This document shows positions 10,075 to 63,437 of a DNA stretch of 64,000 bases, piece by piece. Positions within the stretch are counted from its first letter, which is position 1. Each line of letters starts with the position of its first letter. Source of the DNA: Spirogloea muscicola (lineage: Eukaryota); NCBI GenBank assembly GCA_009602725.1, contig WELB01000007.1:1254310-1318309 (forward strand), in the 5' to 3' direction. The translations under genes and the position numbers were made by a program. The notes beneath the pieces are model-generated. The model saw nothing but the letters and a program-made list of their open reading frames with translations. It ran no database searches and was not told the origin of the DNA.

Positions 10075-10176
10075 GTCAGCCTCGCTTCTGCTGATCGTCG
10101 CTGGCACTCCTCCTTCGCTGGCCTGCGACACCAGCATGTCCTCGACGTTGCGAACGCCGGCAACCAACCGGCCCGA

Positions 10177-10350
10177 NGCTTGCGCAGCGGGGTTGCTCTT
10201 CCTCCCCTCAGCTCATCTGACTTCCTACTGCTGACACGGGGGTATTGAGGGCGCCCTGTCTGCCTAGCCTTTGGCTCCGTCATGAACACCTGTATGCATC
10301 TGGCTGGCATTTCACAGCCGATTCTTTCATATCAGCAGCCGCTTCCTCCC
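10177..10350 (+). mobile_element. 5'-truncated 3' end of CRE-like non-LTR retrotransposon (family F5)
   Basis: Ends ...PPLSSSDFLLLTRGY* (stop at 10248), followed by terminal motif GGCTGGCATTTCACAGCC..ATATCAGCAGCCGC. The same terminus recurs on the minus strand at ~60680-60730. Confidence 0.7.
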
Positions 10351-11100
10351 CGATGGAAGTCGTTGCCAATTGTCGCCTCGTGGCCCGGGAGCGCTGACGT
10401 CGTCCTGGGCTGCCGGGTGGCACTCGGCGCCACTTGGGGCGAGCCGGCGCCTCACGGTGGGCGACGTCCAGAGCGGCGGGGCTACGGGGCGGGCTGCTTT
10501 CTCGTCTTCCGTTCGCTCCAGACGCGGGAGTCATTGGGGCGGAGCGCCGCGCACTTCCAAGACGAAGACGGGGCCGCTGTTGCGCTGGCCTCCGGCGGCC
10601 CCCGGGTCCAGGCTCCGCCGCCGCTGGCGCGGTCCATGCCAGTGCCGCAGCGGCGCTGACCCCCAGTCACCAGTCAGTGGCTCCCGCCAGTGGCTCCTCC
10701 CCGCCCGCTGCGCCGCTCCTTAGCCCGGCTCGCGCCGTGGATTGCCCCCGAGCTCCGCTTCTCGGCGCGATCCCCTTGCCCCGGCTGTGCCTCTGAGGCT
10801 CCCTCAGTGGCTCCCTTTCCGTCTGGAGCTACGGCGGAGCGGCATTGCGGTACTGCGTTGCAACGAGGCGGAGCCCCCGCTGGCACACCTCTCGCCTCCT
10901 CTGGGACCGTCCTTCAGAGTGACGCTCATGCTGGAGGTCGACTGACACGAGCCTGGCGGCCGGTTGCGAGCATGTCGTCGCGAGGCTCCCTCCTCTGCGG
11001 CTCCTCGGAACGGCCTGCTGCAGGCAGGACCCAGGCGCAAGGCTCGCGATGAGTGGCTGGCGGACCATCCAGAACGCGGCCAGAGAAGGGTGACTGTCCA

Positions 11101-14100
11101 ATGTCGTCATCATCACGGCGCCTCTCACACAAGAAGAGTGGCTCATGGCCAATGCCCCCTGGAAAACCAGCACGCTTCCTGGTTAGCAAACGATTAACCA
11201 CTTCCAATCAAGGATGAGTCTACACTTACGAGCTTCTAAGACAGTGTTGTACAGTCTGCTCTCTTTGTGATAGTGCTACTTGCCAAGCACTCATCTTCCC
11301 GGGAAATGCTGCCTGGCTCTCCAAAATTTAATCTTCTCTGCAAAGAAACACTCCTTTCCAGATAATTGTCCATGTTTGGCAGCTGCCGCTTACTTTCAAC
11401 TTCTGAGAGTAAATGCAGACAGTAAAAGGGTCAGGATGGCCCCCACAACAGTGTTGGAGGAGAAAGCTGAACTCCCATGCAAATTCACTCAAAGAGTTCT
11501 CAGTCACCTTCATGGAGGCTTTCAAGATGGTGAGCTGGTTGCTAGCCTGAAAGGGTCAGGCCATGACTTGGCGAAGCTATTGTGCCAGTATCTGTGCAAA
11601 AGTCACGTAAGACATGAACAGCTGCCAGGGGGGGGTGCATGCCTGCTGCATTGCACATTGCATGAAAGGGTGCTCGACACAGTCAGAGCACATGAATAAG
11701 CCTTGCTTGACCACTGCATAATTCGGAGCGACCTTCTTCCTGCCAATTATGCAGTTTGGACTTGGCCTGCGCTTATGGAGTTTTGTGCAGAGAGAGCGAT
11801 CCTTGGGGCGGGTGAGTTTGATCATGAGACCTGTAGCCAAGACCTGCTGCATTGAGGTCAAGTTTCTATTGCTTGCTCCTTGGGCTTGCAAAGTGAAGAA
11901 GATGTATCATGCTGGAGGACTTCAGAAGCTACTCTGTGATGTTATCAACTCAATCATGAATGTGGTAGTAGTGGTTTGCAACTGACTCTATGCTGCAAGA
12001 TTTTACGATCTTACTTAGAAGCTGACAGCAGTACAAGTGTTTTGCAGGTGCCTCCAATCGACCCTTTTAATCGTGTTGTCCAAGCACAGGCTTGTCACGG
12101 CGTACCATGTGGTGGGATGGGGTAAGAACATGCATGGCATGTCTTTGGACCTTCCTGAGTCTTTGTGAACAAGCTGCGGTGGTTGAGGTAGCTTGCCCAG
12201 ACTTGTCCATGGCCTTTCGACAGATGGTCATCATGACTAGCCCTGTTTGAGAAAGGTCTGTGTGAGTGGCGAACCGTCAACCATCTGTGTCAGTAGTACA
12301 GAAGCTCTGATTGTGGGCACCTGCAATGCTGAAGATAGCTTGCCGTGACATCTATCAGAGGGGGTAGCATGAGCCGCGGTTGGCGTGGAGATTTTCGTCG
12401 CTGGCAATTCATCCCAGGCGTTTGTGAGGAAAGTCCTGTCATGGCGGACCAGTTCTCTGTAAGCACTACTGCCTTCAAATAACTTTACTGCATGTAACTT
12501 CAAGGGACAGCCTGCACTTCACCTTCATAATGGACCAAGGAGATGCCGGTGTGTCCTTGTTTGAGTGCAATGGCATACCATGGGTTTTTTCCTCTAACCA
12601 GTACCTTAGGCCCTTGATGAGGAAGCACTGGCATCCTTAGTAAGGTGCACCATCTTAGGTGCTCAGCAGCCGCATTCCTTAGGTGCTGCAGAGTGATAGA
12701 GCAGAGGGATATGGTGAGGTAGCCGAGCACGATCATTCTAAGCAGTGCCTTCCGATGATCTGATAAGGTCTTCATAAAACGCAATAAAGGCCAGACAAAT
12801 GAGAAGACCTTTTCTTCAGTTCTCTACCCAGGAAGGCCCCCTGAAATGAAGTGAGTGATGAAAGGCAGGTCCTGAATGTGATTGTTCTGAGCATATTATG
12901 CATGACGCTGAATGCTGATCTCTCAAGTCAAGAGGCCTGCTTTCACTGTATTAGCAAATTCTCATATATTGGTAAGAGCGAGCTACTCTTGCTTGCAGGA
13001 AGGGAAAAGACGACGAGGGCCTAGGCTCATGGGACTGGAAGCTAGATGGACAGCGTTCAACATATCATGCCCTCTTCCCAAGAGCTTGGACAGTATATGA
13101 TGGTGTGCCCAAGTGCCTTTGTCAACTACTTCCTCTAGATGCATGCCTCGAGTGGCGGGGATGTCTCCGTACTTGGCCTGGAATTTCTGATCTGTAGTAT
13201 ACAACTCCTAAGTTAGAGCCTCGCCCAGGCTCCCTATTACACCTAGAAGATTGAGTGTTTCAGCACTGTCTTTGCTACCTATCCTAAAGCGTCCCGGTTG
13301 ATGGATCTGAAAGGTTCAGTGCAGAGGTTGGTGCTGTTTGAGACTTTGGGTGGTGCTTCTTTGTAAGTCGGTAGCTCTGACTGTAACTTCACCCCTTGTA
13401 CTGCTCAGGTGAACCTGATCCTGAGGTGGTGATCATGTGTACGCAAGTGTCACCTTTTTTGCCCCACAATTACAAGGAGAGCAGCTTACCAACATGTGCA
13501 TTTGCTTACATGGTAAAGCACTGCCCTTCTTGGCTGTGTGCAACTGAAGAAGGAGGAATATGCACCTTGAGGTGCAATAGCTGCTTTCATCAACTGACTA
13601 TTCGCATGCTGATGTCTGCAGCTGAACAATACTGGGAAGGACGATGCTGAGATAACTTTGTTGTTCACGTTCGAGGTTTGATCCAACGTGCTCCTAAGGG
13701 CCATCTTGGCCAGGTTGCTTAGCAGCAGTGAGCTTGTTAAGGTTACCCTGTTTCTCACAGCTTGGCAAGTGCGTTCCACAGAATTCCATTGGCAGCAATG
13801 CAACAGTATCCAGAGGAGGTCATTGCAATGAGGCTTTTGAGTAAGCCTTCAACATGGCTGCTTCCAACTGCTCGATTGCGCCTACGGCCTCACACTCCTC
13901 CAAGACACTAGGCCTAGACACTAGCACCAAATGTGTTCATTGTCTCATTCTCTTTTGTCAATAGAAGGAAGAGCATGAACCGTAGTTGCACTATTGGCAT
14001 GTAACTGAGAGCCTTTGCACATGTGGAACATGTTCTGTAGGCAACCTGATGGTGTGAAAGGCGTTATCCTACATCATAGGCAAGTCAGTCTGTCCCTTCT

Positions 14101-20580: not shown

Positions 20581-21600
20581 TGTGCTCACTGGGTAGCCAA
20601 TACACCAGTTTTCGTTGCACATGACACAGAAGTCATTATTGTTTGTCACGATGGTGCACGCTGTCAACTTGCCTCTGAGCAGGACAGCAGCTCCACTATG
20701 GAGCCTTTAGTCTGTGCTCAGCAATTATTGCTAGAAGTCAACAGAGCTTCATGGCATTTTCATAGGACACTGCATACCTGGTCATGCGCGACACTAGACA
20801 TTTGAAGACATTGCACCTTGGCAATTGCTGCTCTGCCACTTGTACCTTTCAAAGTGTATAGATACAGAACATTCAACGAGTCATCAGCCATAGGCCATTC
20901 AAAGAGCTGGGCTGCTGCGTCCAGCATACTATGTTGGAGGGCACTTTTAACTGAGATGCAACTTGCCCATATTACATGTAACAGTCACAGTCTACCCTCT
21001 TTAATGAGGTATTCTTGACATTACTGCACAGGTTGTGTCCTTGGTAGAGATGGTTGTCGATTGAAATAGGACCCAACCAGTCAAGTATATTTGCTGTGTT
21101 AAGCAGCCAATTGCACTTCCTTGAAACAGCACAGAAAGCTGTGGCGCCCTATGACACTGGGTGTGACTGCAGAGGCCTGAAATTACTCAGACGCACAGCG
21201 GCACTTATAATGCCTGGGATACTGGCCTTTTAACAGTCTGGCGAGGTTGCTCATCTCACAAAGTCACGGTTACTGCCATTCGTGCGGGCCAGCCCTAGCC
21301 CTCAGTCCAGTTGCGATGTCAGCCTGCAGAGTATGAGCTGAAGGAGGGCGAGTTAGTGCTTCCTGAGGCTCCTTGTCTTCGACTGGGAGTCGCCCTGTTG
21401 GTTTTAGCATGCAGCTCTTCCCGTCCTTGTCTCCTATGAGAAGGAGCAGTTCTGCCAAAGTGGGGCGAGGCTACGGGAAAAAGCCGGCCCCTATCATACA
21501 CTACTAAACGAGATGCGAAGGGGTTTGACCACGGGATGCGCGCGGCCGGGCCGCTGATTGCGCGGCGCGCCTCGCCGGGGCGCGCTCCGGGCGCGGGGCN

Positions 21601-22648
21601 GCTTCGCAGCCGCGATGGACAAGGCCGCCTTCACCACCGCCTTGCTGCAGCTCTCGGAGGCGGACCTGCGCGGGCGTGCGAGACTCTACTCGGCCTCTTC
21701 CCCGGGGGCAGCGGCGTGGCTCCAGGCCCTCCCCCTCAACGACGCTCTCACTCTCCCGGACGACGTATTCCGCAGTGCCGTCCTCCGGCTCCTGGGCCTG
21801 CCGCCGCCATGCCTCCAGGGTGTGCGTCAGTGCGAATGTGGCGAGCGAGGGGCCGAGCCTGGGGAGCTGGCCGCTCATGTTCTGTGCTGTTCCCACGGCG
21901 GAGAGCGGACAGTGGCCCACGACTGCCTCCGGGATGCGATGCATGGCATCCTGGTGGAGGCTGGCTTCTCGGTGGCAGCGGAGAACTCCGCCGTCATGCC
22001 GCTCCAGCAAAGGGCCAACGGTCTCCATGCACGTCGTGTAGACCTTGTGGCCACCCCACAAGCCGGAGGGCCACGTCTTATCCTGGATGTGGTGACCACA
22101 GACGCATACGACCGCTCACACCTTGCCCAATGTGCCATCAAGGTTGGGTATGTGGTCGCCTGCGCCGCTCGAGCTAAGGAGCTCAAATATGCTGATCATC
22201 CGCGGGGAGACGAGTTCTTCCCGCTGGCCATCGACACGCATGGGGCGTTGGGCGCTCGGTGGCTCGAGCTGCTCAACCAGCTGGCCCGCCACGCCATCGT
22301 CCGCCGCTTCCATGGGGAGCCAGTAGACTTTCCTGCAGCCGGGTCGCTAGTGCAGGTGTACCGGACGCGCTTGGCCGTCTCGCTGCAGAGGTCTATGGCC
22401 CGCGCGCTGCTCCTGTGTGCCGGCAGAGCCCTCGCTGCTGCCTCTGGCTCTGGGCAGGGGACCCACTTCCAGAAGCCTAGCTTCTCTGACCTGAGGCTGC
22501 TTAGCAGGGTTTACTGCGTAATACGTAGCTGCTTTGTTTCTTGTTGTGCTTGTTTTCCTTAGCGCTTCCCCTGGGCCCCTTCTCGTACTTTGTTCCTTCT
22601 TAATGAGCTGGCTTTTCCAGGTATCCTCAATGGGCGAGCCCTTTCTTG
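21601..22648 (+). mobile_element. CRE-like non-LTR retrotransposon 3' portion (family F1b): zinc knuckle, RLE endonuclease ORF and 3' UTR
   Basis: Open frame with AWLQALP, CEC..H...C knuckle, AHD, RRVD..LILDV, KELKY, FFPLAIDTHGALG, RLAVSLQR, ending SDLRLLSRVY (TGC where the copy at ~36230 has TGA). The UTR matches 36196-36357 and ends in a hairpin plus CTTTCTT. It starts right after a single N. Confidence 0.85.
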
Positions 22649-23013
22649 TGAAAAGCCAGCCCAACCGTGGAATAACCGACGTGGATGCCTTTGGGCTGGC
22701 CTCTTCCAGCCACCAGTTAATCTGGCCGCGCTTGCTCTTTGGATGCAGAGTGAGTCGTGCTTCAGTCGGCTCCTAAAGAAGCAGCTCTCCTGTGAAAGAG
22801 TACAAGAAATGAACAGTGCTTCGCTTCGGGCGCCCAGCCGCACAGAGCCCCGGGTTTAAGTAGAGCCGGGGGGCGGGCAGACCATGGGGAAAGGGCACCT
22901 CCAAGGGGTAATCTAAGCGGCTGTTGGCTTACATGCACACCGCGCGGCCCAGCAGCACAGCCCGAAGCCCTTGCAAGCCGCGGCGAGAGGGTCAAAGCCC
23001 CGGCGCCGGCGCC

Positions 23014-26558
<3,545 letters not shown>

Positions 26559-27031
26559 CAGATAGTATTGAATCTGATGAGAGGTCATAATGGTCATGTT
26601 GGCTGCGGACGTCAAGCACATGTGTAAAGTACAATAGAGCTGCCCATGCGCCCTTTATCTCATCCATAACAAATTCGTTGACACCATGTCAATCTGATAT
26701 TGCCATCTCTCTCAGGGAGTATTAGAAGATGTAGCCGCACGCTGCATTTAATTCATGGCTGATGGCACCATTATGTGCCATCGGCTATGAATAGCTCCAT
26801 GAGACAAGACTTTGCAAGATGCAATGCAAGATGCAACGTTGCCAACTCACACGCACCACTGTGTTTTGCTTTTGCAGCAAGCCTCGCTAAACACCAGCCC
26901 AGACTCAGGGGCTAGTCATTTACATGTAGCAGTTACCTGAACAATGAGTGAACGAGGAAAAGAATGGAATGACTACAATTTTGAATGCAACTTTCACCCT
27001 TGGTGCAAGTGGAGGAAAGTAAGCAACGGCC

Positions 27032-28178
27032 TCATGTGCTACTTGTTTGGCCCTTCAATGCTTGATGATCGTGTGCCTTATGGTCAAGGACACCTGCCAC
27101 ATCCTTCTCCTCTGAGTGTTGATCATATGAACCAACATTTGCCTGCATCACACCACCATACAGACGTGACTCAAGGGCTGGTTCAGATCAGGGCGCCCCA
27201 AGGTCATGCTTCCAAGAAGAGGCAGCCTTGGCAACTGTATGTCATGCAAATATTGCCAGGAAGAGGCAGCCTTGGCATGTGTATGTCATCAGAACATTGC
27301 CAGGAAGCCATTGATTGGCGGAACATAGGCATATGCAGTGCAACTGTCCATGTAGACCACACCTCTACGCGCTGGCCCATCAGCAGGTAGCGCTCGTGCA
27401 GCTTCTTCCCGCCAATGTGCACATCTGTGTCGCACTGGACACATAGTGATGTACCATCTATTCCGCAGTAGAAAAAAGCTGGAGGCAACATGGAGCAGGA
27501 CGGCGTCAGGCTGATCATTCAGAAGCAATGACGAACACAGTGAGACATTTGGATTGATCTTGCTCTGGCAGCAACTGGGCGAGCTGCAGCATCTTCTGCC
27601 TGCTCTGTATGCCAAGGATACAATGACTGAATCCAGGGTCACAGCGTGACGAGAAGCAGCGAGATGCAATGCCACACCTGGTGCATTCTCGCATATGTCA
27701 CAGCGCGGGACAGCCCGCGCATCTGCTAGCGCCAGCCGCACGTGCCTGCTTGCCAGCTTGTTGCAGCCGTGGACCTGCATTCCACCGACAAGAGAGGGAG
27801 GACAAAGGGGGGAGCGGGAAGTGGGAGAGGGACCAGGAAGAGTGAGTATGGCAGCAAAGAGCTGGCACCCATGCACAATCCGAAGTGTCCAACTCAGGTA
27901 GGCTTGGCTGAGTGCACGAACTCAGCAGGACGGAGGTCAGTGGACTGAATGGCCTGCTGCGTTGGGTAGAGACCCTCTCCGCATGGTGCACAATCTATCC
28001 TATGCTGCAAGCCAACTGATGTGGCGCTGGGCAATGACCGTCCGGCGCTGGCGCCGGGCATGACGGGGGAGGCTAGCAGCAGGACCTTCTCGTCGCACTT
28101 GTCGCAGAGCGCAGCCTCGTCGGCGACGCAGAAGAGGCGCGCGGGCGCCACCTCGCAGACGTCGCAGAGCGCCCTCAT
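27032..28178 (-). CDS. Double B-box zinc finger protein (BBX18/19-type); last exon uncertain
   Basis: [31 protein letters not shown] / [26 protein letters not shown] / [39 protein letters not shown]: two B-boxes and no CCT domain seen. Confidence 0.88.
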
Positions 28179-28829
28179 GCCGGCCGCTGCGGCGCGCTCA
28201 TCCGCTGCCCGACATGGGCAGCGGCCGCGCCCGCCGGGCTTCCGCCATGCCCTCCGGTGGCGCTAACGAGGACGCGAGTGGCCGCGAGCGGGCCGAGCTT
28301 CTGCGGCCTCGGCCGCCGCCTCCCGGCACCGGTGCTGACGGCGAGGCGTGCCACTGGTGGTGGCGCGGTGAGCCTCCTAGGCCCGGGCCCAGTGGGGCTG
28401 CGGCGCCAGGGACGCCGGCCCCGACATTGTGGCGGGCCTCCGGACTGACGGCATTGCCCTGCCTTCTGGAGCCACCCGACGGACGAGGGCGGACAGCGGC
28501 GGCGGCGGCGGCGGCCGGCGGTCGCGGGCTGGCTGCCACGCGCGGAGGCGCCTGGCGGCAGGCAGGGCGGCGCCAGGAGGGCCAGGCGCGGCCGTCAAAG
28601 AGAGGCAATGAACGAGGGCCACCGAGAAGGCGAGAAGCCGTCAGGGGGGGGGGCCCCAATCCGGTGACGTGGCGGGGGCGGGTGGGCCGCCGGCCCTCGG
28701 GGAAAAGATACGGGCACTCCCGCCAGCCCGCTGCGGCCGGGGAGTGCGGGAACGCTGGGGAACCCGGGGCCCGCAGCGCGGAGCCGCACATCCACCTCCA
28801 CCTCCACCTCCACGCCCTTTCCCTAATGC

Positions 28830-30830
28830 GGATAGTTTTCCGGCAGCTAGCCCGTCGGATCTGAGGCTCCTCACTCGTAACTACTGAGTGATCCATCCTC
28901 CCCCTGCTCTGCAGGACGCGCTCTGGCCGCCGCCTCCGGGTCTCGGCGGAGCGCCTCCTTCCCCGCATCGAGCTATTCTGACCAGCTGTTGCTCACTCGT
29001 GGGTATTGAGCTTCCCTGGTGTGATGTTAGGCGACGTTCACGGACACGCTGCAGCTCCTCCCCGCAGGCGACGTGCGCGGCCGTGCTCGGCTGCTGTCGG
29101 CCGCCTCCCCCGGCGCGGCAGCCTGGCTCTCTGCGCTCCCACTGTATGATGCGCTCAGGCTGCCGGACGAGCTGTTCCGCACGGCCACGCATCGCCTGCT
29201 GGGCCTCCCCCCGCCCTGCCTGCTGGGCGTGCTGCAGTGCGAATGTGGGGAGCGGTCGACGGACCCGGCGGAGCTGGCGGCGCATCTCCTCCGCTGCGCC
29301 ACTGGAGGCGAACGAACAGCTGCGCACGACCTCTTGCGTGATGCTATGTTCGGGATCTTTCAGGAGGCGGGCTACACGGTGGCGATGGAGAACGCCTCGG
29401 TCATGCCCATCCTCGAGAGGGCTGACGGACACCATACGCGTCGTGTGGACCTGGTGGCGTCCACGCCGGGAGGTGGCGCGCGGATCATAGCCGATGTAGT
29501 CACCACCGATGTGGTCGACCGCTCCAACCTGGGGCTCTCTGCCTCGCGGGCCGGCCACGCTGCCTCGAAGGCCGCTCGCTGCAAGGCGGCCAAGCACTCC
29601 GACCACCCACCTGCCGACGAGTTCGTCCCCTTGGCGGTGGACGTGCACGGGGCTCTTGGGTCCCAGTGGCTTGACCTATTGGCTAGGCTTGCGCGGCGGG
29701 CTGTGTCCCGCAGACGCGGCGAGCCAGCCGACTTCAACGCCGCGGGCTCGTGGGCTCAGGTATATCGGATGCGCCTCTCTGTATCCCTGCAGCGGTCCAT
29801 GGCCCACGCTCTGCATCTGCGAGCTGGCCGTGCTCTCGCTGCGGGCTCTGGCTTTCGTCAGGGTGATAGCTTCCCGGCAGCTAGTCTGTCGGATCTGAGG
29901 CTCCTCACTCGTACTTATTGAGTGATCCATCCTCCCCCTGTTTTACCATTGCATCCTCAGGCCCCTTTGTAGCTGCTCACCGCTCTTAGGCCCCTCTGAA
30001 CCTTTGTGAATGCTTTTTGGGCTGGCTTTTCGCAGCCCTTGCCCCCATTGGGAGTGCCACTTCTTTCTTCTAGTGTGATGTTGTGTTTGGTAGAGTAGTC
30101 CTTCTTTGGCTTTGGACATTGTCCATTCTTTTTTTGGGGCTGGCTTTGCCAGCTCCTCTTCTCTATGGGAGAGCCCTTTCTTACCATAGCATCTTCAGAC
30201 CCCTTTGTAGCTATGTTGCTCACCCGGGGGTATTGAGCTTCCTGTGATTTCGTCGTGTCTTATTCTCTAGCTGCCTAGCTGTGTGTTTTTGTTATTTTCG
30301 GCTTTTGACATTGTCCATTCTTTCTGGGCTGGCTGCTCAATGCTTTTTCTTTGTCAATTCTTTTTTGGGCTGGCTTTGCCAGCCCCTCTTCTCTATGGGC
30401 GAGCCCTTTCTTTCTTTCTGCAGCCCTTGCCCCCATTGGGAGTGCCACTTCTTCTTTCCCTTATGTTCCTACGCCAGTGATCGTTTTCCGATGGGCGAGC
30501 TCTTTCTTCTTTCTTCTTTCCGGCAGGATCTGAGGCTCCTCACTCGTAAGTACTGAGTGCTCCATCCTCCCCCTGATCTGACATAGCATTCTCCGACCCC
30601 TTTGTAGCCGCCACACGCTTGTAGGCCCCTCCAAATCTTTGTCCGTTCTTTTTGGGCTGGCTTTTCGCAGCTCTTGCCCCCATTGGGAGTGCCACTTCTT
30701 TCTTTATGTTCCTACGCCAGTTCTGAGCTAGCTCGTTCTGGCCCCTTCGAAATTTGGCCCCTTCGAACCTTGTCACATCTTTTCGGGCTGGCTTCTCACG
30801 GCCCTTGCCCCCACTGGTAGAGCCACTCCT
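28830..30830 (+). mobile_element. Nested cluster of co-oriented CRE-like retrotransposon 3' ends (families F1 and F4)
   Basis: Five ORF termini (LTRNY* 28887, LTRGY* ~29009, LTRTY* 29921, LTRGY* ~30237, LTRKY* 30556) and about seven full or partial terminal hairpin modules. TSDs ctRgtgtgatgtt (29016-29028/30070-30082) and ttatgttcctacgccagt (30461-30478/30704-30721). Confidence 0.88.
29029..29921 (+). CDS. C-terminal part (zinc knuckle and restriction-like endonuclease) of CRE-like retrotransposon ORF, family F1
   Basis: Uninterrupted frame: AWLSALP, CECGE..AHLLRC, AHDLLRD, RRVDLV..IIADV, KAAKH, FVPLAVDVHGALG, YRMRLSVSLQR, SLSDLRLLTRTY*. Clearly homologous to the 21601-22520 ORF. Confidence 0.85.
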
Positions 30831-30837
30831 TACTGAA

Positions 30838-31020
30838 ACTTGGCCACCCAGGCCCTCCATCACTCAATACACACTCCAAATCCTTTCCCACGTCACCGTG
30901 CTTGCCCTTGTACTTGGCCACTCAGGCCCTCCGTCACTCAATACACATTCCACTCTTCGTTCCCACCGCCTTGCTTATGTACTTGGCAGCTCTGGCCCGG
31001 CCATCACCGAACACTCACCG
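30838..31020 (+). repeat. About 2.5 degenerate tandem units (~70-74 bp) related to the F2 3' UTR
   Basis: Units begin ACTTGGC at 30838, 30912 and 30981. GTGCTTGCC..TGTACTTGGCCAC..ATACACA matches the F2 UTR at ~36140-36180 and ~58470-58525. Confidence 0.65.
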
Positions 31021-35751: not shown

Positions 35752-36069
35752 GACTTAGAGGTCGAGCGCCGGCTGGAGGCAGCCCGCTGCGGGCTGCGCC
35801 GCGTTGCAGGAGGCGGCTCCGCCGGCGCTGGGCGGGCGCGTCAGAAGACGCTCGCTGCTTGGGGACGGCGGCCGGCAGCTCCGCGCGGCCTGAGAGCCGG
35901 AGGGGCACAGTGCTGGAACAGGGATGTCGCTTGAAGTTCTTGTATCAGGGGGCGTGGGACTGTGAGAAGCCAGCTTCCAGAAGTACGAGCAAGGTCGCTG
36001 CAGAGAGCTAACGGGTTGGTGTACATTCCTCGTTCCGGCTGCGCGTTGTCCATCTCTCTTTTTTCCGGT

Positions 36070-36369
36070 CTAGTGACCTTGTGCTGACTCGTGGTTACTG
36101 AGCGGGTCAGCTTAGCAGCAGATGATGTACGTCTGGCGATGTGCTTGCCTTCTGTACTAGGCCACTCGATACACACTCCATGCCTTTTCTTAGCCCAGCA
36201 TCTCTGATCTGCGGCTGCTTAGCAGGGGTTACTGAGTGTCTCGTAGCAGCTTTGTTTCTGTTACTTAGCGCTTCCCCTGGCCCCCTTCTCGTACTCTGTT
36301 CATTCTTTTTCGGGCTGGTTGTTCCAGCCCCTATTCTCAATGGGCGAGCACTTTCCTCTTTTCTTAGCC
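36070..36369 (+). mobile_element. Two CRE-like 3'-end remnants (F2, then F1b) in the ALF4/UFSP2 divergent promoter
   Basis: DLVLTRGY*-GCGGGTCAG (F2), then SDLRLLSRGY* with UTR and hairpin (F1b, 36196-36357) flanked by the 12-bp direct repeat cttttcttagcc (36184-36195/36358-36369). Confidence 0.82.
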
Positions 36370-36419
36370 GGCCCTGGATCCCAGCTACCATCCCCGTACT
36401 CTCACTTTCACTCGCCCCC

Positions 36420-40843: not shown

Positions 40844-43800
40844 TCATCTTGCAGACATTCCATGCATGCGAGCAACTCTTTCATATAGGTCTTGTGGCCA
40901 GTTTCTCTGCAGTGAATTAGCCACCGCTTGTATGATCTGAAAATGGAAAGCAGTGTTGCATCAAAAAGGAGCACCTATAGACCTCAATGCGTCAGCAAGC
41001 ATGATTACCATTCGGCAAAGAAGCTGTGAAGATGCTACGAAGTACCACAATATCATGTGAAGCAATAGTGCAGAGTGATTATTGGCAAAGACTATCACAA
41101 GGTGTTCCTCACCTTGGAGCGAAGAGTAGCAATGGAAGGGTCGAGTGGGGTAGACGAAGAGGCCAGCGTGTCCAGGCAGGAGAGGGCATTGCTAAAGAAA
41201 TCAGGAACTCGATCCTCAACGGGTCTGGTGAGACTTCGTAAGCACTCCAAGGACTTCTCTAAAGTCCTCCCCTCCAGTGGCAAGAAGGGCAGGCGGGTCA
41301 GCTGCCGGACTGCATCCAGGTACTTCCCTGACCGATTCAGTTGCTGGAAGTCAAGGATAACCTGAAGTTGGCGAAATGCTGCTTGTTGCACGGCTAGTGC
41401 CTCCCTGTCCTGGGTGCTGCAGAGAGAGAGAGAGAGAGAGAGGTGAGGTCAGACAAAAGCAACAGGAGATGTAGATCTCAGGGAGCAGGCTGTAGAATCA
41501 GCTGCATTCCTCACAGCTTCTTATATGCAGGGCTAGCAGCCTGGGTTGGACTATATATTATTGCAGCAAATAGGACTCAACATAGCAACCAGCTTTGCTG
41601 GTCACATAGGAGTTCAGAAGTGTGAGCTGCTCTCTATGTAAATATTGATCTCATTTTGCACATGAGGGAAGGGTCCTGTGCCTGCAGCATGCATTGGCTT
41701 AAGACTACCAGCTTAAGAAAGCCCAACTGTGCAGGTCCATGCATTGCACGCCCGCCTGGCATGCCCTCGGTGGCAGCAGATAAATACCAGTGAATGAGAC
41801 TGCTGACCTGCGAGAGCCAGTGTAGTCATGAGCATCCAGGATCTCGATGCCAGCCTCGAGCGCCGAGTTGGCCGGGGCATCCTTCTCACCAGCAATGGCC
41901 TCAGACAGCTGGCAATTGGCGACCTCCAGTGCCCGGGCAAAGTCGCCAGCCTTCCTGAACAGCTCCCTGGCCTGTTGCAGGACGACAAAATTTAACGAGG
42001 TCCTTAGCTCCACTCTGTGCCCGAAACTCTCTTGCATCAGCCAGACAAGAGTGATACATGACGGCATGACAATAACGGTCACCTCGTCCAGCTGGCCGGC
42101 GTCACGGCCCTCCGTCGCAGCCTGGAGGGTGAGCTGGCGCCTCGCTGCAGGGTCAGTGACGTGCCGAGACAAAGAGCCGTTGCCTGGCGGGCCCAGCAGC
42201 AGCGCCGCGCCGCCAGGCACTCTCAGAAGCTCCACAAGCAGCTGCTCCAGTGCGGCCTGCTGGCGCTGGGGAGCGTCAGCGCCACCGCCTTTGCCCATGG
42301 CTGACGCTGCTGCGAGATAGTAGTCGAGCGCGGCCCTCAGGTTGCCCCTTCGCGCATATGCCGCACCCTGCTGGCGCACGAGCGACGCCACGTACGCCGC
42401 TGCGTCGAGTCCTAGCACCGCCTCGGCTCTTGAGACACCCTCCTGCAGGGCGCCCCACTCGGCCAGCGCCAAGCCGGTATGACATGCCTCGCCCGGGCTG
42501 CCACCAGGCAGGTTCTCAGATTCCAGCTGTGCGAGGTGCGAGACCGCAAACTGAAGCTGCTGGCTGAGGATGAGCACGTAGGGGTACAGCAGGGGATCCT
42601 TGCCGCCCTTGACGTAGTAGCTTGCATCAAACTTGCGAAGGTACACCTGGAGAGCACCCAGGCTGCACGATCCGACGGTGGAAGCGGCGCCAGGGAAGCT
42701 GGAGGACGGAGCAGGCGCTGTGTCGTCCAGCACTGCGAGCTTGAACCAGAGGAAGTCCTCGATCGTAGCAAAGAGAGTGGGTATGTCGTGCGACAGTCGC
42801 TCAGGCAGCAGCTTGGCGCCCCCAAGCAGCAGGTGCAGCAACATCTTCTTCTTGTCGTAGAATGGCCGCCATGTCCCCCCGCCTTGCCTCTCGCCGCCGC
42901 CACCCCCAGACCTTGCAATTCTCTCGCACTCCTCGGCCATGGCCGAAGCAGTACGTGCCGACACGTGGCCACCAGTGTCCAACCACTCCTCCAGCTGCCA
43001 GATAGCAGTAAAAACTTGTCAGATGATCTGCTTCCTTGGCAGCTGACCTTCAATTACTGCTCAGTGGTTGTACCATCTTGTTTAAGCATGGCCAACAAAG
43101 TGCACCACATGTGCACATGAGAATGCCTTTGGGGGGGTTTTAGGAGGTACACTCCTACAAGTCACTTGTCACCGTGGTACTTACGATGCATCAAGCTCAA
43201 CAAGCTCAACAAGCTCAAGTCAGAGAAGGGTTGTGGAGCAAAGCTTACAGCTGAAGCGAAGGTGGCCCGACTGATACGAGAAGACTCAGCCACCTGCCGA
43301 GCCTCCTCATGGAATCCCGACCTCAGGCACAGATAGATCTGCGACAGTGCTTATCTTCTGAGAACAAGTCTCCACCTTTCTGTGCTGCGCTCAAGAGCAG
43401 TGCATGAGAGCAGTCACTGCCACATACCAACTCTACCAGCGAGCCTGCACACAGCTACCAGACCTGGTGCCATGTCGTGTCCAGGGGCGGTTGCCTTGGA
43501 TGTGGCCCAGCGTCAAAGTCCAGGAGCCCCTGATCACGCAACCTCACCTGCAGCAGGTCTGAGGTAAGAAGATGCGATGTCACATACACAGGGGTTGCTG
43601 CCCACTGCTACTTTACATATGGAGCTCAGACTTGAGTAGTGCCTCTGATTTGCTGCAATTGCTTCTGACAAATCTTCCTTTCAGTCTTTTGTGTTGGCGT
43701 GCTTGCACTCTTACCCTACTCAAAGAGACAGACAACCCAGCTAGCTGAAAGTAAAGAGTCCCATAAAACAACTGTATTTCTCAAGAAGGCTACTTCTCTT

Positions 43801-46314: not shown

Positions 46315-46329
46315 GGCGGCGGCGGCGCC

Positions 46330-46641
46330 NNNNNNNNNNNNNNNNNNNNNNNNNNNNNNNNNNNNNNNNNNNNNNNNNNNNNNNNNNNNNNNNNNNNNNN
46401 NNNNNNNNNNNNNNNNNNNNNNNNNNNNNNNNNNNNNNNNNNNNNNNNNNNNNNNNNNNNNNNNNNNNNNNNNNNNNNNNNNNNNNNNNNNNNNNNNNNN
46501 NNNNNNNNNNNNNNNNNNNNNNNNNNNNNNNNNNNNNNNNNNNNNNNNNNNNNNNNNNNNNNNNNNNNNNNNNNNNNNNNNNNNNNNNNNNNNNNNNNNN
46601 NNNNNNNNNNNNNNNNNNNNNNNNNNNNNNNNNNNNNNNNN
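46330..46641. other. Assembly gap covering the NUP93/NKAP divergent promoter and the NKAP start
   Basis: Run of N flanked by very GC-rich sequence and a T homopolymer. Confidence 0.98.
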
Positions 46642-46660
46642 TTTTTTTTTTTTTTTTTTT

Positions 46661-48597
<1,937 letters not shown>

Positions 48598-53212: not shown

Positions 53213-53529
53213 CTTAAGGCCCGTCGACGCCGCCGAGGCGACCTCGCTGCGCAGTAAAGCTCACGGCGCTCCAGCTGCGAAGCTGCAGCATTTCGTAGCT
53301 TTATTGACCAAGAGCGGGCTGTCTGGATGACATGCTCGTGACCACCTAGGGCAACGTCCTCCGGCAGCAGCTGAAGCGACAAGCGTCCGACGCCGGCTCC
53401 GCCGGAGCAGCCACAGCGGCCGCCTCTTGCCGTCGCCGCCGCCGCCGCCGCGGTCGAGAGGAGGGCCGCCGAGCTGCCTGCGCATCTGGGTGCAGCAGGA
53501 GAGCCGTAGGCACTTCGCGTGTATGGAAA

Positions 53530-54720
53530 CAATGGAAGGCCAAAGTGGCCGAGTGCAATGGCAAGCACATCTGATGACGTACATTATCCGCTGCAATCTG
53601 ACCCGCTCAGTGACCACGGGTCAGCACGTAGAGGTCGCCAAATTGATGCCTGAATACCGGATGGCAATTTACAAGCCCTTCTGCCACCAACTAGAGCTTG
53701 CCCAGCTTTCTGGTGCAAAGAGAAGTGGCACTCCCAATGAAAGCAGGGGGCAAGGGCTGCGAAAAGCCAGCCCAAAAAGAATTGACAAAGAGGAAAGGGC
53801 TCGCCCATTGAGGATAGGGGCTGGACAAGCCAGCCCAAAAAAGAATGAACAAAGAACGAGAAGGGGGCCAGAGGAAGCCAGAGGAAGCGCTAAGAAACCA
53901 AAGCACACAAAGAAAGAAAGCAGCACAAAGGTTTGGAGGGGCCTACAAGCGATGGTGCAAAGCATGAGTCTGAGCACGCTGCCAAGAGGCCGACACACGA
54001 TAGCGCAAGAACGACAGAGATGCAGCAGGCAAACCCATCTCGGCCGGAAGCACATCTGCGCAACCGTAGGCGACAGTGTCAACTGCCTAGCTTACTATCC
54101 GGGCTGGCCTCACACTCCTCGCCAACTTTGGAGGAGATTACTTCTCAACTGCCGAGCGGAAGGCACGAGGGGGAAGGCGCGCGGTGCGCATGAAATTGAA
54201 AGGGAGGCCAATTCTAGCCTTACAAATGTCTTATTAACTGGGTAATGAGCTGGCTAAGGGGGACACTAATATCCCCGAGTGAGCACATGCATATCTGACA
54301 AGCTATACTGAGGAGCCAAACCACCCCCACGGAAGCCATTAGCCTGGGCTAATGCACGACCAGCACGCTGGTGGATTGCGAGTGCTTGAGAGCGCTGCAG
54401 ACTCAACGATAACCGCATTCTAAAGCATGCAAAACGAACGGACGAACGAAATGAACGAACGAACGGGCTGCTAACATTTGAGGGGCGGCTGTGAAAGCCA
54501 GCAAGTGAGAGGAGTAAGCTCTTTCTAAGGGGGCGAGGGCTGTGAAAAGCCAGCGCAGACAGAATGGACAAGGTTCAAAGGGCCGAAAGGCGCTAAAAGC
54601 GCACAGCTGTGCAAGTGCCTACAGCGAATGGGAGCTCGTGACCCCGAGTCAACAGCCAAGTGCATACAGAAAGAAAATTGGACTGAACCAAGCCCGTGCA
54701 GCACCCTGCAAAGGGCCACG
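53530..54720 (-). mobile_element. Nested cluster of CRE-like 3' ends (F2 containing F1 containing F1b; F3 adjacent)
   Basis: F2 ORF end HQKAGQALVGGRRACKLPSGIQAS; F3 ORF end RMRLSLSLQRSQALAIHQRAGRALA..SLSDMHVLTRGY* (54266). TSDs tggtgcaaag (53711-53720/53953-53962) and acaaag (53785-53790/53925-53930). Confidence 0.85.
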
Positions 54721-54926
54721 TATCAAGAAGGCCTTCAAGAACGCCTACGGTGCAGAGTCCCTAACACTCAGCACAGCCTGACAATGGTCACCTGCACGTT
54801 CTCTTGCTGTGCAGGAAACAGTGATCTCATATGTACCGTGCACCCATGACGTAGTGTCTGGCTAATAGTGACTCGTCCACAAGGCCAAGGCTGTGAGCCA
54901 CTTGCCCTGCTGAAGGGAGTGACTCA

Positions 54927-57348: not shown

Positions 57349-59752
57349 GGCGAGCTCGCCGTGGCCGCGCGGCGGGCGGGGGAGGCGGAAGGCGGGCGCG
57401 CCAGCCGCAGCACCCCGCGGAGCTCCGCCGCGGCGCGGAGCTCTCCGTGTGTCCCCACCGACGCCGGGGTGCCGATTTCAGACCTTGTCCGGACCTTGTT
57501 CAGTCCTTCTCCCAGCCATCACTACCTTACATGGGAAGAGCTCTCTCTTTCTTCTTCCTTTCCCGCTGAGCTGCAGGCTTCGGCCTCTCCGGACGGCTGT
57601 GGGGGACACTAGGCCCACCTCTCCCCGCGAGGCCCCGGGAGCTGCCGGCGGAGTGGCCGTCATGGGGAGCGGCCGGCGGCGCGCGCGGAGCACAGCCGAG
57701 ACGGAGCGGCCCGCATCTTCCGTCCCCGTTGCTTGGCTTCGCAACAGCTTCCGCCTGAACAACGTGGTGGCTTGATCTGGCCTCCCTTTCAATTCATGCG
57801 CGCGCGCCTTCGCTTGCTTCGCTGATTGAAGCCTCGAGATGTGCACTTGCTTTTGCCCGAACAATGTAACGGCACAAATTGGCCACCCTTGCTTTCCCTG
57901 CGCACCGCGCGCCTTCATCTCCGCCAGCCGCCGTCGCGAGGAAGGCGGCCGCCCGCTGCCATGCATGGGGGCGGGCGGGCTGAGCGGGCCAGGCGCATGC
58001 GGGCCGCCCCGCGGCCCCACGTGCTCTCTGCACCCCCACTGGCTGCGCCTTGTGACTTCCGTGCAATTGAGGTGGCGGTAGCCGAGGCTCTCATTGGACG
58101 ATAGAAACTGGGGGTAACCCACGAGGCGGAGCCGTGGTGGGCCCCGCCGCCCAGCCCGGCGGCGCCAGGGCCGGCGCGGGCCCGCCGGCCCCAGCGGGGA
58201 ACCTCCCGCCTAATAACGGCCCGCTGACCGGGACGGAGACGAACGAAGGTTCGTCCTGCGAGAAGGCCGTGCTATGGCCGCCGCCTCTGCCAGCTTGTCT
58301 GCAGCGAGCTCAGGCTCATGCGTTGCATCAGAAAGCTGGTCGAGCCTTAACTGGTAGTTCGAGAGCTTGTCGATTGCCGTCCGGTATTCGAGCATCAGTT
58401 AGCGACCTCTATGTGCCGACTCGTGGTTACTGAGCGGGTCAGCTTAGCAGCAGGTGACGTACATTGGTCAATGTGCTTGCCTTTGTACTTGGCCACACAT
58501 GGCCTCACCATCTCTTCATACACACGCATTCTTCTGGGTCTCGGCGGAGTGCCTCGTTCCCTGCAGCCAGCTACTCCGACCCGATGTTGCTCACTCGCGG
58601 GCACTGAGCTTCCTTTGCATCGTTGTGTGGTTTTTGCCGTGGTTTGTAGTGTAGTCCCATTTCGGCACCTCTTTCTTTGGCTTTGGACATTGTCCATTCT
58701 TTTTGAGCTGGCTTTGCCAGCCCCTCTTCTCACTGAGCACTTTCCTTCGTCCTGGAGCCCTCAAGTCTGCTATTCCATTCTTTCTGGGCTTGGGCTTCTA
58801 TGTGGGCTGGCCAGGGTGGGTCTCTCTTCCGCTTACAGAAGTGGCACTCCCAATGGATAACAGCCATCGCCCTCTACTGGACGAGAGTCTTCCCCTTCCT
58901 TCCCTTTCTCTGGGCTGGCCGATCTCAGCCACCGCCCTTTCCTGGAAGCCCTCTTTCTTCTTTTCACAGCTGTCGTTCAGCGCCTTCCGGTCTCTTTCGG
59001 TCCTTGCCAATCTTTTCCTTGCTTTGGGCCCCTCCGTCATTTGGCCCGTTCGAACCTTTGTTCGAACCTTGTTCTTTTCGGGCTGGCTTTTCACAGCCCT
59101 TTGCCCCCATTGGGAGAGCCACTTCTTCTCAATCTTTTCGGGCTGACCTTTCACAGGCCTTGCCCCGTTGTTGGATTTGTTTGTGCTCACCCGTGGGTAC
59201 TACTGTCACCCTGTTACCTTAGGTACCTTAATATAGGGCTCCGTTTCATGTAGGCTTGTTTGCTTTGCACTAGACTCCGCCTGCACAATGTGTTGGCTTG
59301 AATTGGCCTCCCTTTCATCTCATGCGCTCCGCGCGCCTTCTCTCTTTGGGAGAGCCACTTCTTCTTTCACAGCCCTAGCCCCTTTGGAAGAGCCCCAATT
59401 TCACACAGTGGTTGCCCCGTCTGGAAGAACGATCCGAATATTTTGAAACAAACAAAGGCCAAATGGCCAAGTACAAAAGCAAGCAAATCTAGAGACGTTC
59501 ATCCCCTACATCAGATTGACCCGCTCAGTAACCACGGGTCAATACATAAAGGTCACTCGATGCCTGAATACTAGATGGCAGTTACGAAGCCCTTCTGCCA
59601 CCAACTAGAGCTTGCCCAGCTTTCTGGTGCAAACATTAGCCTGAGCACGCTGAAAACAGGCCGAAATACGTCGTCGCAAAAACGACAGATATGCCGCTGG
59701 CAGGCCCATCTCAGCCGGAAACACATCTGCACGTCGTGCATAGCCTAGAATG

Positions 59753-59797
59753 TAAGGTTTAGGGTTTTACGGTTTAGGCTTAAACTAAATCCTAAAC
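59753..59797. repeat. Short degenerate telomere-like repeats in inverted arrangement
   Basis: GGTTTAGGGTTTTACGGTTTAGGC followed by TAAACTAAATCCTAAAC. Confidence 0.35.
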
Positions 59798-61539
59798 GCC
59801 GTCTGGAAGAGCTGCACTTCCGCTGTGACGCCTCAAGTACTTCTTGACTTGAGGCTGCTAGCTAAGGATTACCAATGGTCAATCCTTCGTGGTACCTGCA
59901 TAGCTGTGTGATTTAGCGCTTCTCTGCCCAGGCTAATGGCTTCCGTGGTGGTGGTTTGGCTCCTCAGTATAGCTTGTCAGATATGCATGTGCTCACTCGG
60001 GGATATTAGTGTGCCCCTCAGCCAGCTCATTACCCAGTCAAAAGGACATTTTTAGGGCCAGGAATGGCCTCCCTTTCAATTTCATGCGCACCGCGCGCCT
60101 TCTCTCTTCCCTGCCCTTTTGGACCCTGTCCATTCTTTTCGCCCTGGCCTTTCACAGCCCCTGCCCCCTTTGGAAGAGCTAAACTTTTCCATGCATTTCA
60201 AATCCCAGCTGCAGGCAGGCCTCGCTTTGGATGCTGCTTCTGATTTCATCACGGTGACACTGTTCCGAATGCAAGCTACTCTAACTTACGGCTGTTGACT
60301 TGGGGTAATTGAGCACCCCTTCATGTTAGGCACTTGCGTAGATGTGTGGTTTTGGCGCTTTTGACCCTTGGGTTGGTCTTTCGCTGCCATCGCCTCGTTC
60401 GCCATTGCACCACTGGCCACTTCCGGGCAATGCTTTTCCGCCCTCTAGTTATTTTGATCTGCAAATGCTGACTAGTGGTCATTGATTGGAACAGCCTGTC
60501 ACCAAGAGGAGCAGACCAGTCTGCAACTTGGCAGGCTCTCCAGCCCAGGTATATCGCATGCGCCTGTCCGTACCTCTAGAGCGGTAAACGGCACACGCGT
60601 TGCATCTGCACGCCGGTCGCGCTTTGGCCTATCCTTAATGAGCGAGCCCTCTTCTCTTTGGCTGCTGCCTCTCGCTACAGAAGAATGCGGCTGCTGATAT
60701 CAAAGGAGCGGCTGTAAAAGCCAGCCATAGACATGGCTATAGACAGGGGACCCGCTGCCAGGAGACGAGATTCTCTGGCCTAGGGCTGCTCACTGGGGAA
60801 TATTAAGCACTCAGTGGCCACTTGAGTCGCCGTGTGCTTTTAGCGCGTTGCTGGCCCCTTCAAATGTTCATTCCTCTCCTGGGCTGGTCAACCACAGCCA
60901 TCGCCCTCTACTGAAAGAGTCCCTCGTTTATTGAGAGAATGAGAGAAAAACGCTTCCATGAGAGGGCGGTGGCTGTGAGAAGAAGTGGCTCTACCAATGG
61001 GGGCAAGAGGCTGTGAAAAGCCAGCCCGAAAAGAATTGACAGTGAGAGAGCCAGCCCAGATAAAATAATGAACAAAATCCGAAGGGGGCCAGGGAAAGTG
61101 CTAAAAGCTAGAGAAAGGAAGCTCCCCTATGTACTTGGCCATTTGGCCTTCGTTTGTTTCAATCACACGATATGTTCCCTTTGGAAGTGTCTTTCTTCTC
61201 TTTAAGAGCTCACTTCCTATTGAGCGTCCACTCGCAGATTCACGGCGAGTCGTTTCGTGCTTTTTGCGCCTTCCGACCCAGACCGTGAACATTCCTCTGG
61301 GCTGGCCTCTCACAGCCATTGCCTGAAAAGCGCGGCCGAATTGACTGGTGGCTGGGAGAAGCCAGCCCAAAAGGAATGAACAAGGTCAAGAGGAATTCCA
61401 ATGCAAGGCCATTGCCTTGCATTGGAAGAGCTGTTTCCGGAGCGGCCTCCTCGTCGCCCCCTTCAAAGAAGAAAAGTGATTTGAAGTGGTTTCCATTTTG
61501 CTTTAGCTCATATACGTGCGCTGCGCACCACGGCGGGCG

Positions 61540-61749
61540 GCCCACCCTGAGGTACTCCTGCCTAGCTATGCAGATGACACAACTTTGGTGGGCCCCCTTG
61601 CAGATGTCACCCGAGCCTTCAGCACCTTGAAGTGTGAGCTACACTCTCTCGGCCTCACAGTCCGCCCCGACAAATGTACGGCATGGTCGCCAGTCGGCAT
61701 CCCTCCCACCCTTCCGGTAGGGTGCCAGACCCCCCCCCTCGGTTATTGA
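61540..61749 (+). mobile_element. Non-LTR reverse transcriptase fragment (YADD region) joined to an F2 3' end
   Basis: HPEVLLPSYADDTTLVGP..AFSTLKCELHSLGLTVRPDKCTAWSP resembles RT motifs 5-6 of RLE-class non-LTR elements, and runs directly into GY*-GCGGGTCA. Confidence 0.8.
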
Positions 61750-61864
61750 GCGGGTCAATTTCCCGTGGTTATTGAGCGGGTCAATTTGCTGTAGATTAGG
61801 TAGGTCTTCAGATGTGCTTGCCTTTGTACTTGGCCTTTGGCCTTCGTTTGTTGCAAATACACGA

Positions 61865-63437
61865 AACTTTTCCTCGGCAACAGGTTATGGGCCCACGGGC
61901 CGCAGCTGCGCTTCACACAGGATATCCGCTTAGCTTCGTCCAAGCAGTCGGTTTCAGCTTTGGGGGAGATAACTTTTCCTTGTGGAGTCTGAAAGTTAGG
62001 ACGGTGCTGCAAGCCATTGGTTTGTGAGGGCATTCTGATGGGAGTCACGAACAGCCTGACCACACATCGCCAGAGTATGGCTTCTGGCGTAGTAGGGATT
62101 TCCAGGCTAGAGCAGTTGTTGTTCTCAACTTGGAAAACAAATCAATTGCATCATATCGAGTTGCTAGACACAGCAAAGTCCTGTTGGGACAGGCTAGTAG
62201 AGCTCTACCAGCCGCAATCTCATGCTAATGAGATGTTCTTGCTCAGAAGACTACTTGGTCTGGTGATGACAGAGGGAGCCTCACTACTGACCCATGTAGA
62301 TGCAATGAAGAGTCTAGGAAACCAGCTTGCTATCATAGGGGCTCCTGTTTCTGACAAGCACATGGCTTCTTACTTGCTGTCTAGCTTGCCTGTCTCCTAC
62401 GAGCTGGTAGTGACCTCCCTTGAAGGGAGAGAACCAGCTCCTTCGCTGTCCCAAGTCATTTCCAGGCTTTTATTGAAAGAGACCAAGCGGAAGGGGGTGT
62501 CTAGTAGTAGCTCCTATGATGCTTTGGCACTTCTCAGCACTACTGATATTCAAGGTCCTCCCATCTGTTCTTTTCGTCAGAGACCCAGACACACCTAGAA
62601 AACGTGCCGAACCCAGAACCCTCATCATCCAAAAGCATCCTTGACAATGTCTGTAGTCGCAGAGGAAGCCTTCATGGCTGTCTCTGGAACTAACACCACT
62701 AAGCTTGTGGACGATGATGTCTGGTTGATAGATTCTGGAGCAACTCAGCATGTCTGCTCCCAGAATAAATCGTTCGACAGCTTCAAACGTATTTCACCTC
62801 TTCCTGTTCCTGTTTTGCAAACGGAAGTGTGGGTCATGCTGTCGGTGAAGGTACAGTGAGACTTCATGCTCAAGTGAAAAACAGAATCACTCCCTGCATC
62901 CTGAAAAATGTCATGTATGTTCCCTCTTCAAAGACGAATCTCTTCTCTGTCTCAAAGGCAACGTCTCAAGGGAAGCAGGTGAAACTCTCTGCAGATGCAT
63001 TTGTTTTTGTCAATGTTTCCACCGGAGTCATAGTGGCTGCAGGAATCCGATATGGAAACATGTGTCAGTTGCTCTGCTCAATTGTTGAGCAGTCAGCATC
63101 TCATCGTCCTCGTGCTTCGGCAGAGAGGGCATGCACTAACCCGCTAATCGAAAACGTCCAAGTATTCATGGCTCAGTTTTCACAAGCTCGGCTACTCCGA
63201 ACATCATTGGAGAAATACCAATTTCAACAGCGGCGAAGCAAGTTGGAGTTAGACTGCAAGTTCAAGGAACAGTACATGCTGTACATGCAGCTGCTGTTCC
63301 TGTTGAAGCACCTGCTGCTACTTCTTGCACCTGCTGCTACTTCAACATCTTCCTCACTTGCACAGAATGCTTTCATGGCACGACAGGGGATCCTTCCTCT
63401 CTTGCTCGACCTCAGACTTATGTTGATGCTGTTTTGA
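61865..63437 (+). mobile_element. Degenerate Ty1/Copia LTR retrotransposon (PBS, gag, protease; integrase and RT absent)
   Basis: GDNFSLWSLKVRTVLQAIGL; gag segment WDRLVELY..LLSSLPVSYELVVTSL; protease WLIDSGATQHVC; GEGTV..LKNVMYVPSSKTNLFSVSK. Stops and frameshifts are present. Confidence 0.88.
61883..61896 (+). promoter_or_regulatory. Primer-binding site complementary to the tRNA-iMet anticodon stem-loop (hemivirus type)
   Basis: GGTTATGGGCCCAC lies immediately after the LTR-end-like CAACA and just upstream of gag. Confidence 0.8.

Follow-up and report, generated by a model that had tools for sequence, protein, structure and literature searches.

Retrotransposons that carry a restriction-like endonuclease (RLE) are the textbook examples of site-specific retrotransposons and form the basis of R2 gene-insertion tools. 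Variable target duplications and truncated 3' ends are the marks of target-primed reverse transcription. Four RLE clades including CRE are described as mostly target-specific, with transposons among their targets (PMC4640811), and the EhLINEs are described as untargeted (PMC1635306). A close described system for the present work is Cnl1 of Cryptococcus neoformans, which bears a CRE-type label (PMC7175516) and resembles the elements described here in that its copies are truncated to lengths from 25 bp up, have duplications of 0-13 bp and are reported to insert into one another (PMC12810828; 10.1101/2021.08.11.455996). In this article we analyze 64,000 nucleotides of the genome of the zygnematophyte alga Spirogloea muscicola (assembly GCA_009602725.1, contig WELB01000007.1, positions 1,254,310 to 1,318,309), where clusters of RLE-type elements occur near gene starts. 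We refer to this whole stretch as the window and count positions from its first letter. The explanation that we prefer, with slightly better than even confidence, is that related RLE families became nested around gene starts by a two-step insertion, first into open, likely unmethylated islands and then into earlier copies. A preference for such islands would be an unusual habit for the RLE class.

Distribution of the elements

Self-comparison and tiling revealed 50 pieces of about nine related, 5'-truncated families of retrotransposons without long terminal repeats (non-LTR) that carry a restriction-like endonuclease. All but one of the pieces lie in six clusters and the remaining one in an intron; looser searching added only chance-level matches of 17 and 27 bp (E about 0.04). 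The scope is a single 64-kb window with seven founding sites, and the element counts refer to it. The open reading frames (ORFs) and untranslated regions (UTRs) mentioned below are those of the elements, and the start codons (ATG) those of the host genes.

10178-10348, plus strand: cluster 1, a 3' piece of family D (end of the ORF and 3' UTR) within exon 2 of an F-box gene, flanked by a 6-bp duplication that has one base N
21601-22739: cluster 2
21601-22647, plus strand: older, 5'-truncated copy of family A with a knuckle and endonuclease ORF at 21603-22514; no duplication found
22689-22739, plus strand: 3' piece of family K located about 270 bp before the PRMT ATG (23014); 7-bp duplication
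28817-30998, all plus strand: cluster 3, with 12 tiles from about nine elements (of families B, C, A/C, I and F) between the ATG of the BBX gene (28178, minus strand) and the stop of the next gene (31004, minus strand)
29029-30072, plus strand: young copy of family B, 1044 bp, ORF at 29031-29918, within a family C 3' UTR (28911-29028 and 30083-30182); 10-bp duplication
36069-36357, plus strand: cluster 4, in which a family A piece (36196-36357) sits at the tail of a family F piece; 12-bp duplication, tail letters partly shared; 50 bp before the UFSP2 ATG (36420)
39737-39785, minus strand: solo 49-bp 3' end of family A in a UFSP2 intron; 10-bp duplication, CpG-poor flanks
53516-54665, all minus strand: cluster 5, five elements (families F, B, A, E and I), located roughly 30 bp ahead of the likely scramblase ATG (53485)
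53516-54059: triple nest in cluster 5, where F holds B (53721-53952, 10-bp duplication), which holds A (53791-53924, 6-bp duplication), followed by E and I
57743-61864, mixed strands: cluster 6, 24 tiles (18 plus, 6 minus) interspersed with GC-rich patches of host DNA; it begins 394 bp before the GT8/GolS ATG (57348, minus strand)
60981-61041, minus strand: 61-bp piece in cluster 6 that interrupts the terminal hairpin of an older copy in the same orientation; 6-bp duplication

The location signal that survives our analysis is CpG context, i.e., avoidance of CpG-poor gene bodies. Ratios of observed to expected CpG (o/e) lie mostly between 0.3 and 0.5 within gene bodies and between 0.8 and 1.0 around gene starts; judging by these ratios, the gene bodies are likely methylated and the gene-start islands unmethylated. 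With the copia end and an N gap excluded, a CpG-rich host flank of 200 bp was found at six of the seven independent sites compared to 16-21% of 52,458 host bases (P 1.1e-4 to 5.2e-4, with thresholds set after the data were seen), and all six assessable gene-start islands are occupied. The possibility that the elements themselves created the islands is rejected because the host flanks and the element-free first exons are also CpG-rich.

An earlier sequence-only reading of the window placed all six clusters in the spacer directly upstream of a gene start and proposed that the elements home to promoter-proximal, CpG-rich open DNA. Five clusters lie about 270, 638, 50, 30 and 394 bp before an ATG, but the placement does not hold for the 10.2-kb piece, which is found in exon 2 of the F-box gene and not in the GBA2 spacer. 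The cluster attributed to the BBX gene is indeed upstream of its start, at 638 bp; its other edge, however, reaches the stop codon (31004) of the adjacent minus-strand gene, whose last exon is CpG-rich. The same reading found a single 49-bp piece in the introns, and we found no other in ~25 kb of intron (a total estimated from gene spans and protein lengths). Elements are absent from the three convergent spacers, as it stated, but no more than expected by chance (no elements in ~1.4 kb compared to 4.2 kb of host 5' spacer, P=0.23, with spacer boundaries estimated by us). The convergent spacers total only ~1.4 kb and their emptiness consequently means little, so that avoidance of convergent spacers is rejected. 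What remains of the homing proposal is the association with CpG-rich DNA near gene starts, without restriction to the spacer directly upstream and without avoidance of convergent spacers.

Neither the distance (30-640 bp) nor the orientation relative to the start codon is fixed, and a fixed orientation to the gene is rejected given that the elements run in the direction of the nearest gene in some clusters and against it in others. These positions bear on the possibility of a Tf1-like tethering to the transcription start machinery, which would place each insertion upstream of a start. Five of the six clusters begin 30-640 bp before an ATG, and Tf1 shows such an upstream window (PMC7175516). 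Yet one site (that of the F-box gene) lies 890 bp inside the coding region, two 5' spacers are empty, cluster 6 extends 4.5 kb from its ATG, and the orientation to the gene is mixed, which makes tethering improbable in our judgement.

Two other features of the CpG landscape were recorded. An internal exon of NUP93 (42001-43000), far from the gene start, is CpG-rich (GC 0.62-0.67, o/e 0.7-0.9) and free of elements. An N gap of 312 bases (46330-46641), followed by a T run, covers the NUP93/NKAP divergent promoter and hides the only gene-start island that was not assessed.

Nesting and orientation

Duplications flank the element in nine insertions and measure 10-12 bp in four cases and 6-7 bp in five; they were identified in a search of 35 boxes except for one pair spotted by eye. 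The chance of such a duplication per box is 0.3% or less at 10-12 bp and 3-10% at 6-7 bp, and a shared tail can lengthen the apparent duplication. Five of the nine duplication-flanked insertions are located in or on an older copy, in nests that are up to three deep. The clusters are therefore nests that derive from seven founding sites, not fifty, and since the nests are built on earlier copies most of the pieces can be explained without promoter sensing. The sequence-only reading took the clusters as many independent choices of a site, a view contradicted by the target-site duplications.

The tiles within a cluster tend to be co-oriented: all 12 tiles of cluster 3 are on the plus strand (P 0.004), all seven of cluster 5 on the minus strand (P 0.06) and 18 of the 24 in cluster 6 on the plus strand (P 0.02), while the remaining multi-tile clusters are co-oriented in 2/2 and 2/3 tiles; some tiles in these counts are halves of one element. 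A shared target motif is rejected because the nine reconstructed empty sites have no motif in common. No homeologous empty site was found for any insertion among the joints listed on contigs over 20800-40300, where repeat-to-repeat joints dominate. The element tails are rich in CTT/TTTC, and a tail-like start (CTTT or TCT) is present in four of the five nested duplications compared to none of the four others. Tail-like triplets reach 18% on the UTR sense strand as opposed to 1.6% on the antisense strand, an eleven-fold difference.

Where the nested copies land also bears on the idea that the endonuclease reads DNA structure and nicks hairpins or cruciforms, in which case GC-rich palindromic promoters and element hairpins would both be targets and the two patterns would share a cause. 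Most families terminate in a GGGCTG..CAGCCC hairpin, two of the five nested insertions fall inside a terminal hairpin or no more than about 12 bp from one, and R2-type proteins are reported to cleave four-way junctions (PMC6895275). The other three nested insertions lie elsewhere, orientation would not be dictated by a palindrome, and, while two of eight element ends fold better than shuffled sequences (z -4.1 and -3.1), the other six do not. We give this idea very little credence. As a separate observation, the flanks of the family A copy in cluster 2 (21535-22664) may be two halves of an older terminal hairpin on the opposite strand, in which case the copy would be a reversed nested insertion.

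Element families and their protein

The elements are RLE-type non-LTR retrotransposons: they combine a C-terminal knuckle and endonuclease, 5' truncation, seen as a pile-up of pieces at the element 3' end, and variable target-site duplications. Sixteen element ORF ends were located by motif. The two long remnants of the endonuclease ORF (21603-22514 and 29031-29918) both encode a CCHC knuckle and a PD-(D/E)xK-type endonuclease with the pattern C-x-C-x12-H-x3-C..HD..E..R-x-D..D. In 38 sequences D140 is invariant and C72, H85, C89, H99, E120, D155 and K185 are at least 90% conserved. A profile of the window ORF and its relatives matches the knuckle and endonuclease of R2 (8GH6, 9NL2; E 1e-5). 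Pfam yielded no model for either endonuclease ORF, the Atlas search with the endonuclease ORF returned unnamed clusters only, and the structure prediction for this ORF was poor (pLDDT 51). The endonuclease motif spacers of 19, 16 and 14 fall within the published SLACS/CRE ranges, and the knuckle spacer of 12 in place of 7-8, AHD in place of RHD and RVD in place of R/KPD fall outside them.

The window contains no reverse transcriptase (RT). RT and endonuclease occur together in gene model P0002, which is a mosaic (RVT_1 E 2e-4, below the curated cut-off; R2 E 0.005), and in a single ORF of P0036 (39% to the window ORF). Elements of the CRE clade carry one or two zinc-finger-like motifs at the N-terminus; a finger C-x2-C-x12-H-x3-C precedes the RT in P0002, with no such finger in the window. 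The RT search produced two proteins, neither of them a named CRE element. Membership of these families in the CRE clade is plausible, and their behaviour resembles that of a CRE-type element that inserts by target-primed reverse transcription with relaxed specificity.

Age, copy number and relatives

The family B copy at 29029-30072 is young (a run X7 contig differs from it at three positions in 795 bp; 98% to P0012) and the family A copy at 21601 is older (68 differences in 464 to a contig of run X5). Run X7 carries the label of another organism; it contains 29029-30038 near-unchanged (no differences in 245 bp, three in 795 bp) and hardly covers the host genes, and the match may reflect carry-over of high-copy reads or a shared element. 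The summed contig depth is 1e5-5e5 over the clusters compared to 50-74 for single contigs; a depth sum is not a copy number, and this one suggests thousands of copies. The depth also drew attention to positions 26008-26658, where it sums to 814 in run X1 compared to ~250 in neighbouring bins; a small repeat may sit there, in the last PRMT intron or the convergent spacer, and the element searches gave no match to it.

The relatives of ORF 29031-29918 obtained by word search are all gene models with a single identifier format (25/25), up to 98-99% identical, and seven further gene models in this format are labelled Spirogloea muscicola. Relatives are also present in Klebsormidium, Chlorokybus and Closterium, and two scans of metagenome contigs gave no match. 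In an endonuclease tree of 45 rows, all algal or unnamed, from which rows with fewer than 185 aligned residues and short distant rows were excluded, the Spirogloea rows fall into a single starred clade of 11 (95/93), with two unnamed rows.

The gene models serve as a proxy for insertions elsewhere. Pieces of two or more families occur in 12 of 32 named gene models (at least 70% identity; some may be cross-matches). Among the 11 gene models with 200 or more residues of other sequence the piece stands before that sequence in five, on both sides in five and after it in one, with P0002 left out as a frameshifted element. This pattern is consistent with stacked pieces in numerous spacers and tends towards 5' ends. 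The element pieces fused into many public gene models of this widely used relative of land plants distort protein starts and promoter analyses. One gene model, P0001, contains nine identical repeats of 83 residues from the endonuclease end across 8 kb, either a single truncated copy repeated in tandem or an artefact of the assembly.

Insertion model

In the first step of the explanation that we prefer, founders would enter open, likely unmethylated islands at no fixed distance and on no fixed strand, with the island bias arising at insertion. In the second step, later copies would land on the T/C-rich sense strand of earlier copies, where the CUU/UUUC-rich tail of the RNA could pair with the nicked DNA primer and set the orientation.

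The main competitor is near-random insertion, after which copies in exons and short introns were purged or decayed and the first survivor in a spacer became a neutral, T-rich target for later copies. In its favour, one intronic copy is flanked by a duplication, nesting covers most pieces without any chromatin bias, and the introns are short, so that insertions there may disturb splicing. The C>T changes in the older family A copy are mostly at CpG/CHG (12 of the 15 changes listed, 58% expected), which indicates that decay operates. In contrast, one survivor occupies a coding exon and others lie 30-50 bp from an ATG, positions at which the strongest purging would be expected, in a redundant genome, and the introns hold one piece. 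Such a distribution is hard to obtain by purging alone, the more so given the presence of several similar gene copies: contigs ~88% alike span the window genes, and a triplication has been reported for Spirogloea muscicola (PMC9237934). Furthermore, the CpG-poor spacer behind GBA2 (~1 kb) and GolS (0.6 kb) is empty and the promoter ends of the same spacers are filled. We consider near-random insertion with purging rather unlikely, but the intronic copy and the small number of sites (seven) keep it alive.

Several observations count against the two-step insertion itself. It was derived from one window with seven founding sites, and the thresholds were chosen afterwards. With 35 boxes searched and a chance rate of 3-10% per box for duplications of 6-7 bp, only the four of 10-12 bp are safe. 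Six of the 24 tiles in cluster 6 are reversed, and a reversed 16-bp tile abuts the family A copy at 22647. The intronic copy demonstrates that insertion into CpG-poor DNA happens, and copies in methylated introns could decay faster and hence be undercounted. Tail-like triplets make up 7% in gene bodies and 3.5% in islands; with islands the poorer of the two, tail priming cannot explain the island bias. The gene-model proxy is small (five before-only models and one after-only) and includes same-strand pieces only, and two of the five before-only models carry just the C-terminal host part, which also fits an intronic insertion.

A bolder version, which we put forward tentatively and with more doubt than confidence, is that an RLE radiation that has abandoned sequence-specific targets reads the unmethylated state of gene-start islands and has built nested stacks at nearly every promoter of the genome, making up much of the promoter-proximal DNA. 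If two-step insertion is correct, a high-copy group that chooses its sites by chromatin state and by priming from its own tail shows how specificity is lost and what replaces it. The three host gene copies should provide empty sites for most insertions, which makes the hypothesis directly testable.

Genes and other features of the window

Pfam supports the GBA2, PRMT, B-box, UFSP2, NUP93, NKAP and GT8 genes, and weakly the scramblase. Neither ALF4 nor WDR6 has a Pfam match; these names, which we take over as presumptive labels, come from the sequence-only reading and from sequence motifs. Two features complete the map.

9286-10659, plus strand: F-box gene, not listed previously, with its ATG at 9286, exon 1 at 9286-9574 and exon 2 from ~9785 (Pfam PF00646, E 2e-6)
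61993-63437: degenerate Copia LTR element (gag PF14223, Pol beta-barrel) directly behind cluster 6

The F-box gene has a glycine-rich N-terminus and is arranged head-to-head with a WD-repeat gene at a distance of 139 bp. From 9787 its frame stays open up to the element; with the element and one 6-bp duplication taken out, it carries on in the same frame to the stop at 10659. Codon-position GC is 0.80/0.59/0.86 upstream of the element and 0.76/0.65/0.80 downstream, the latter in the joined frame only. All three forward frames are long behind the element, which weakens the frame argument, and an Atlas search with the part behind the element gave no match (0.79, low recognition). Judged by frame and codon-position pattern alone, this part appears to be coding, and the insertion in exon 2 probably inactivates this copy of the F-box gene. 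Both the 139-bp WDR6/F-box spacer and the true spacer before GBA2 (10660 to ~10970) are element-free. A repeat-rich zone may begin or end at the Copia remnant, and this could account for both the size of cluster 6 and its mixed orientation.

Comparison with known systems

Our literature search returned nothing on these families or on island-biased RLE elements, which is weak evidence of novelty as most subscription papers and Repbase reports were outside its reach. CRE1/2, SLACS, CZAR, MoTeR and FoTeR share with the window elements the knuckle and endonuclease motif with similar spacing (PMC12857005) and variable duplications (PMC12278014), but they target spliced-leader genes or telomere repeats and the window elements share no target. 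The spacer from C to H in the knuckle is 12 in the window elements and 6-8 in the trypanosomatid and fungal set, and trypanosomatid CRE elements are generally poly(A)-ended, unlike the CTT/TTTC tail found here. We reject an assignment to trypanosomatid CRE in the strict sense because the nine empty sites share no motif and the tails are CTT/TTTC-rich. R2 matches in knuckle and endonuclease but is strictly specific for 28S rDNA.

Two other systems resemble the window elements in their distribution. Zepp and ZeppL of green algae form arrays of 3' ends by nested self-insertion (PMC8226300), but they belong to the L1 clade, not to the RLE elements, and form one centromeric cluster per chromosome; the RLE-type C-terminus and the six clusters in 64 kb of gene-dense DNA exclude membership in this group. 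[quoted passage not shown]

The CRE elements of Ectocarpus are likewise present in thousands of copies (two families, 4821 copies; PMC12477816), but the main text of that source does not contain the word 'promoter' and no island bias was seen in it. The premise of the sequence-only reading that RLE elements mostly hit fixed multicopy targets agrees with PMC4640811 but sits less well with these copies and with the self-arrays of Cnl1. The insertions of Cnl1 selected at FRR1 fall in the 5' UTR in 27 of 51 cases, a figure that comes from drug selection (PMC12810828; 10.1101/2021.08.11.455996). Cnl1 forms subtelomeric arrays of one family, whereas the window has small multi-family nests at ordinary gene starts.

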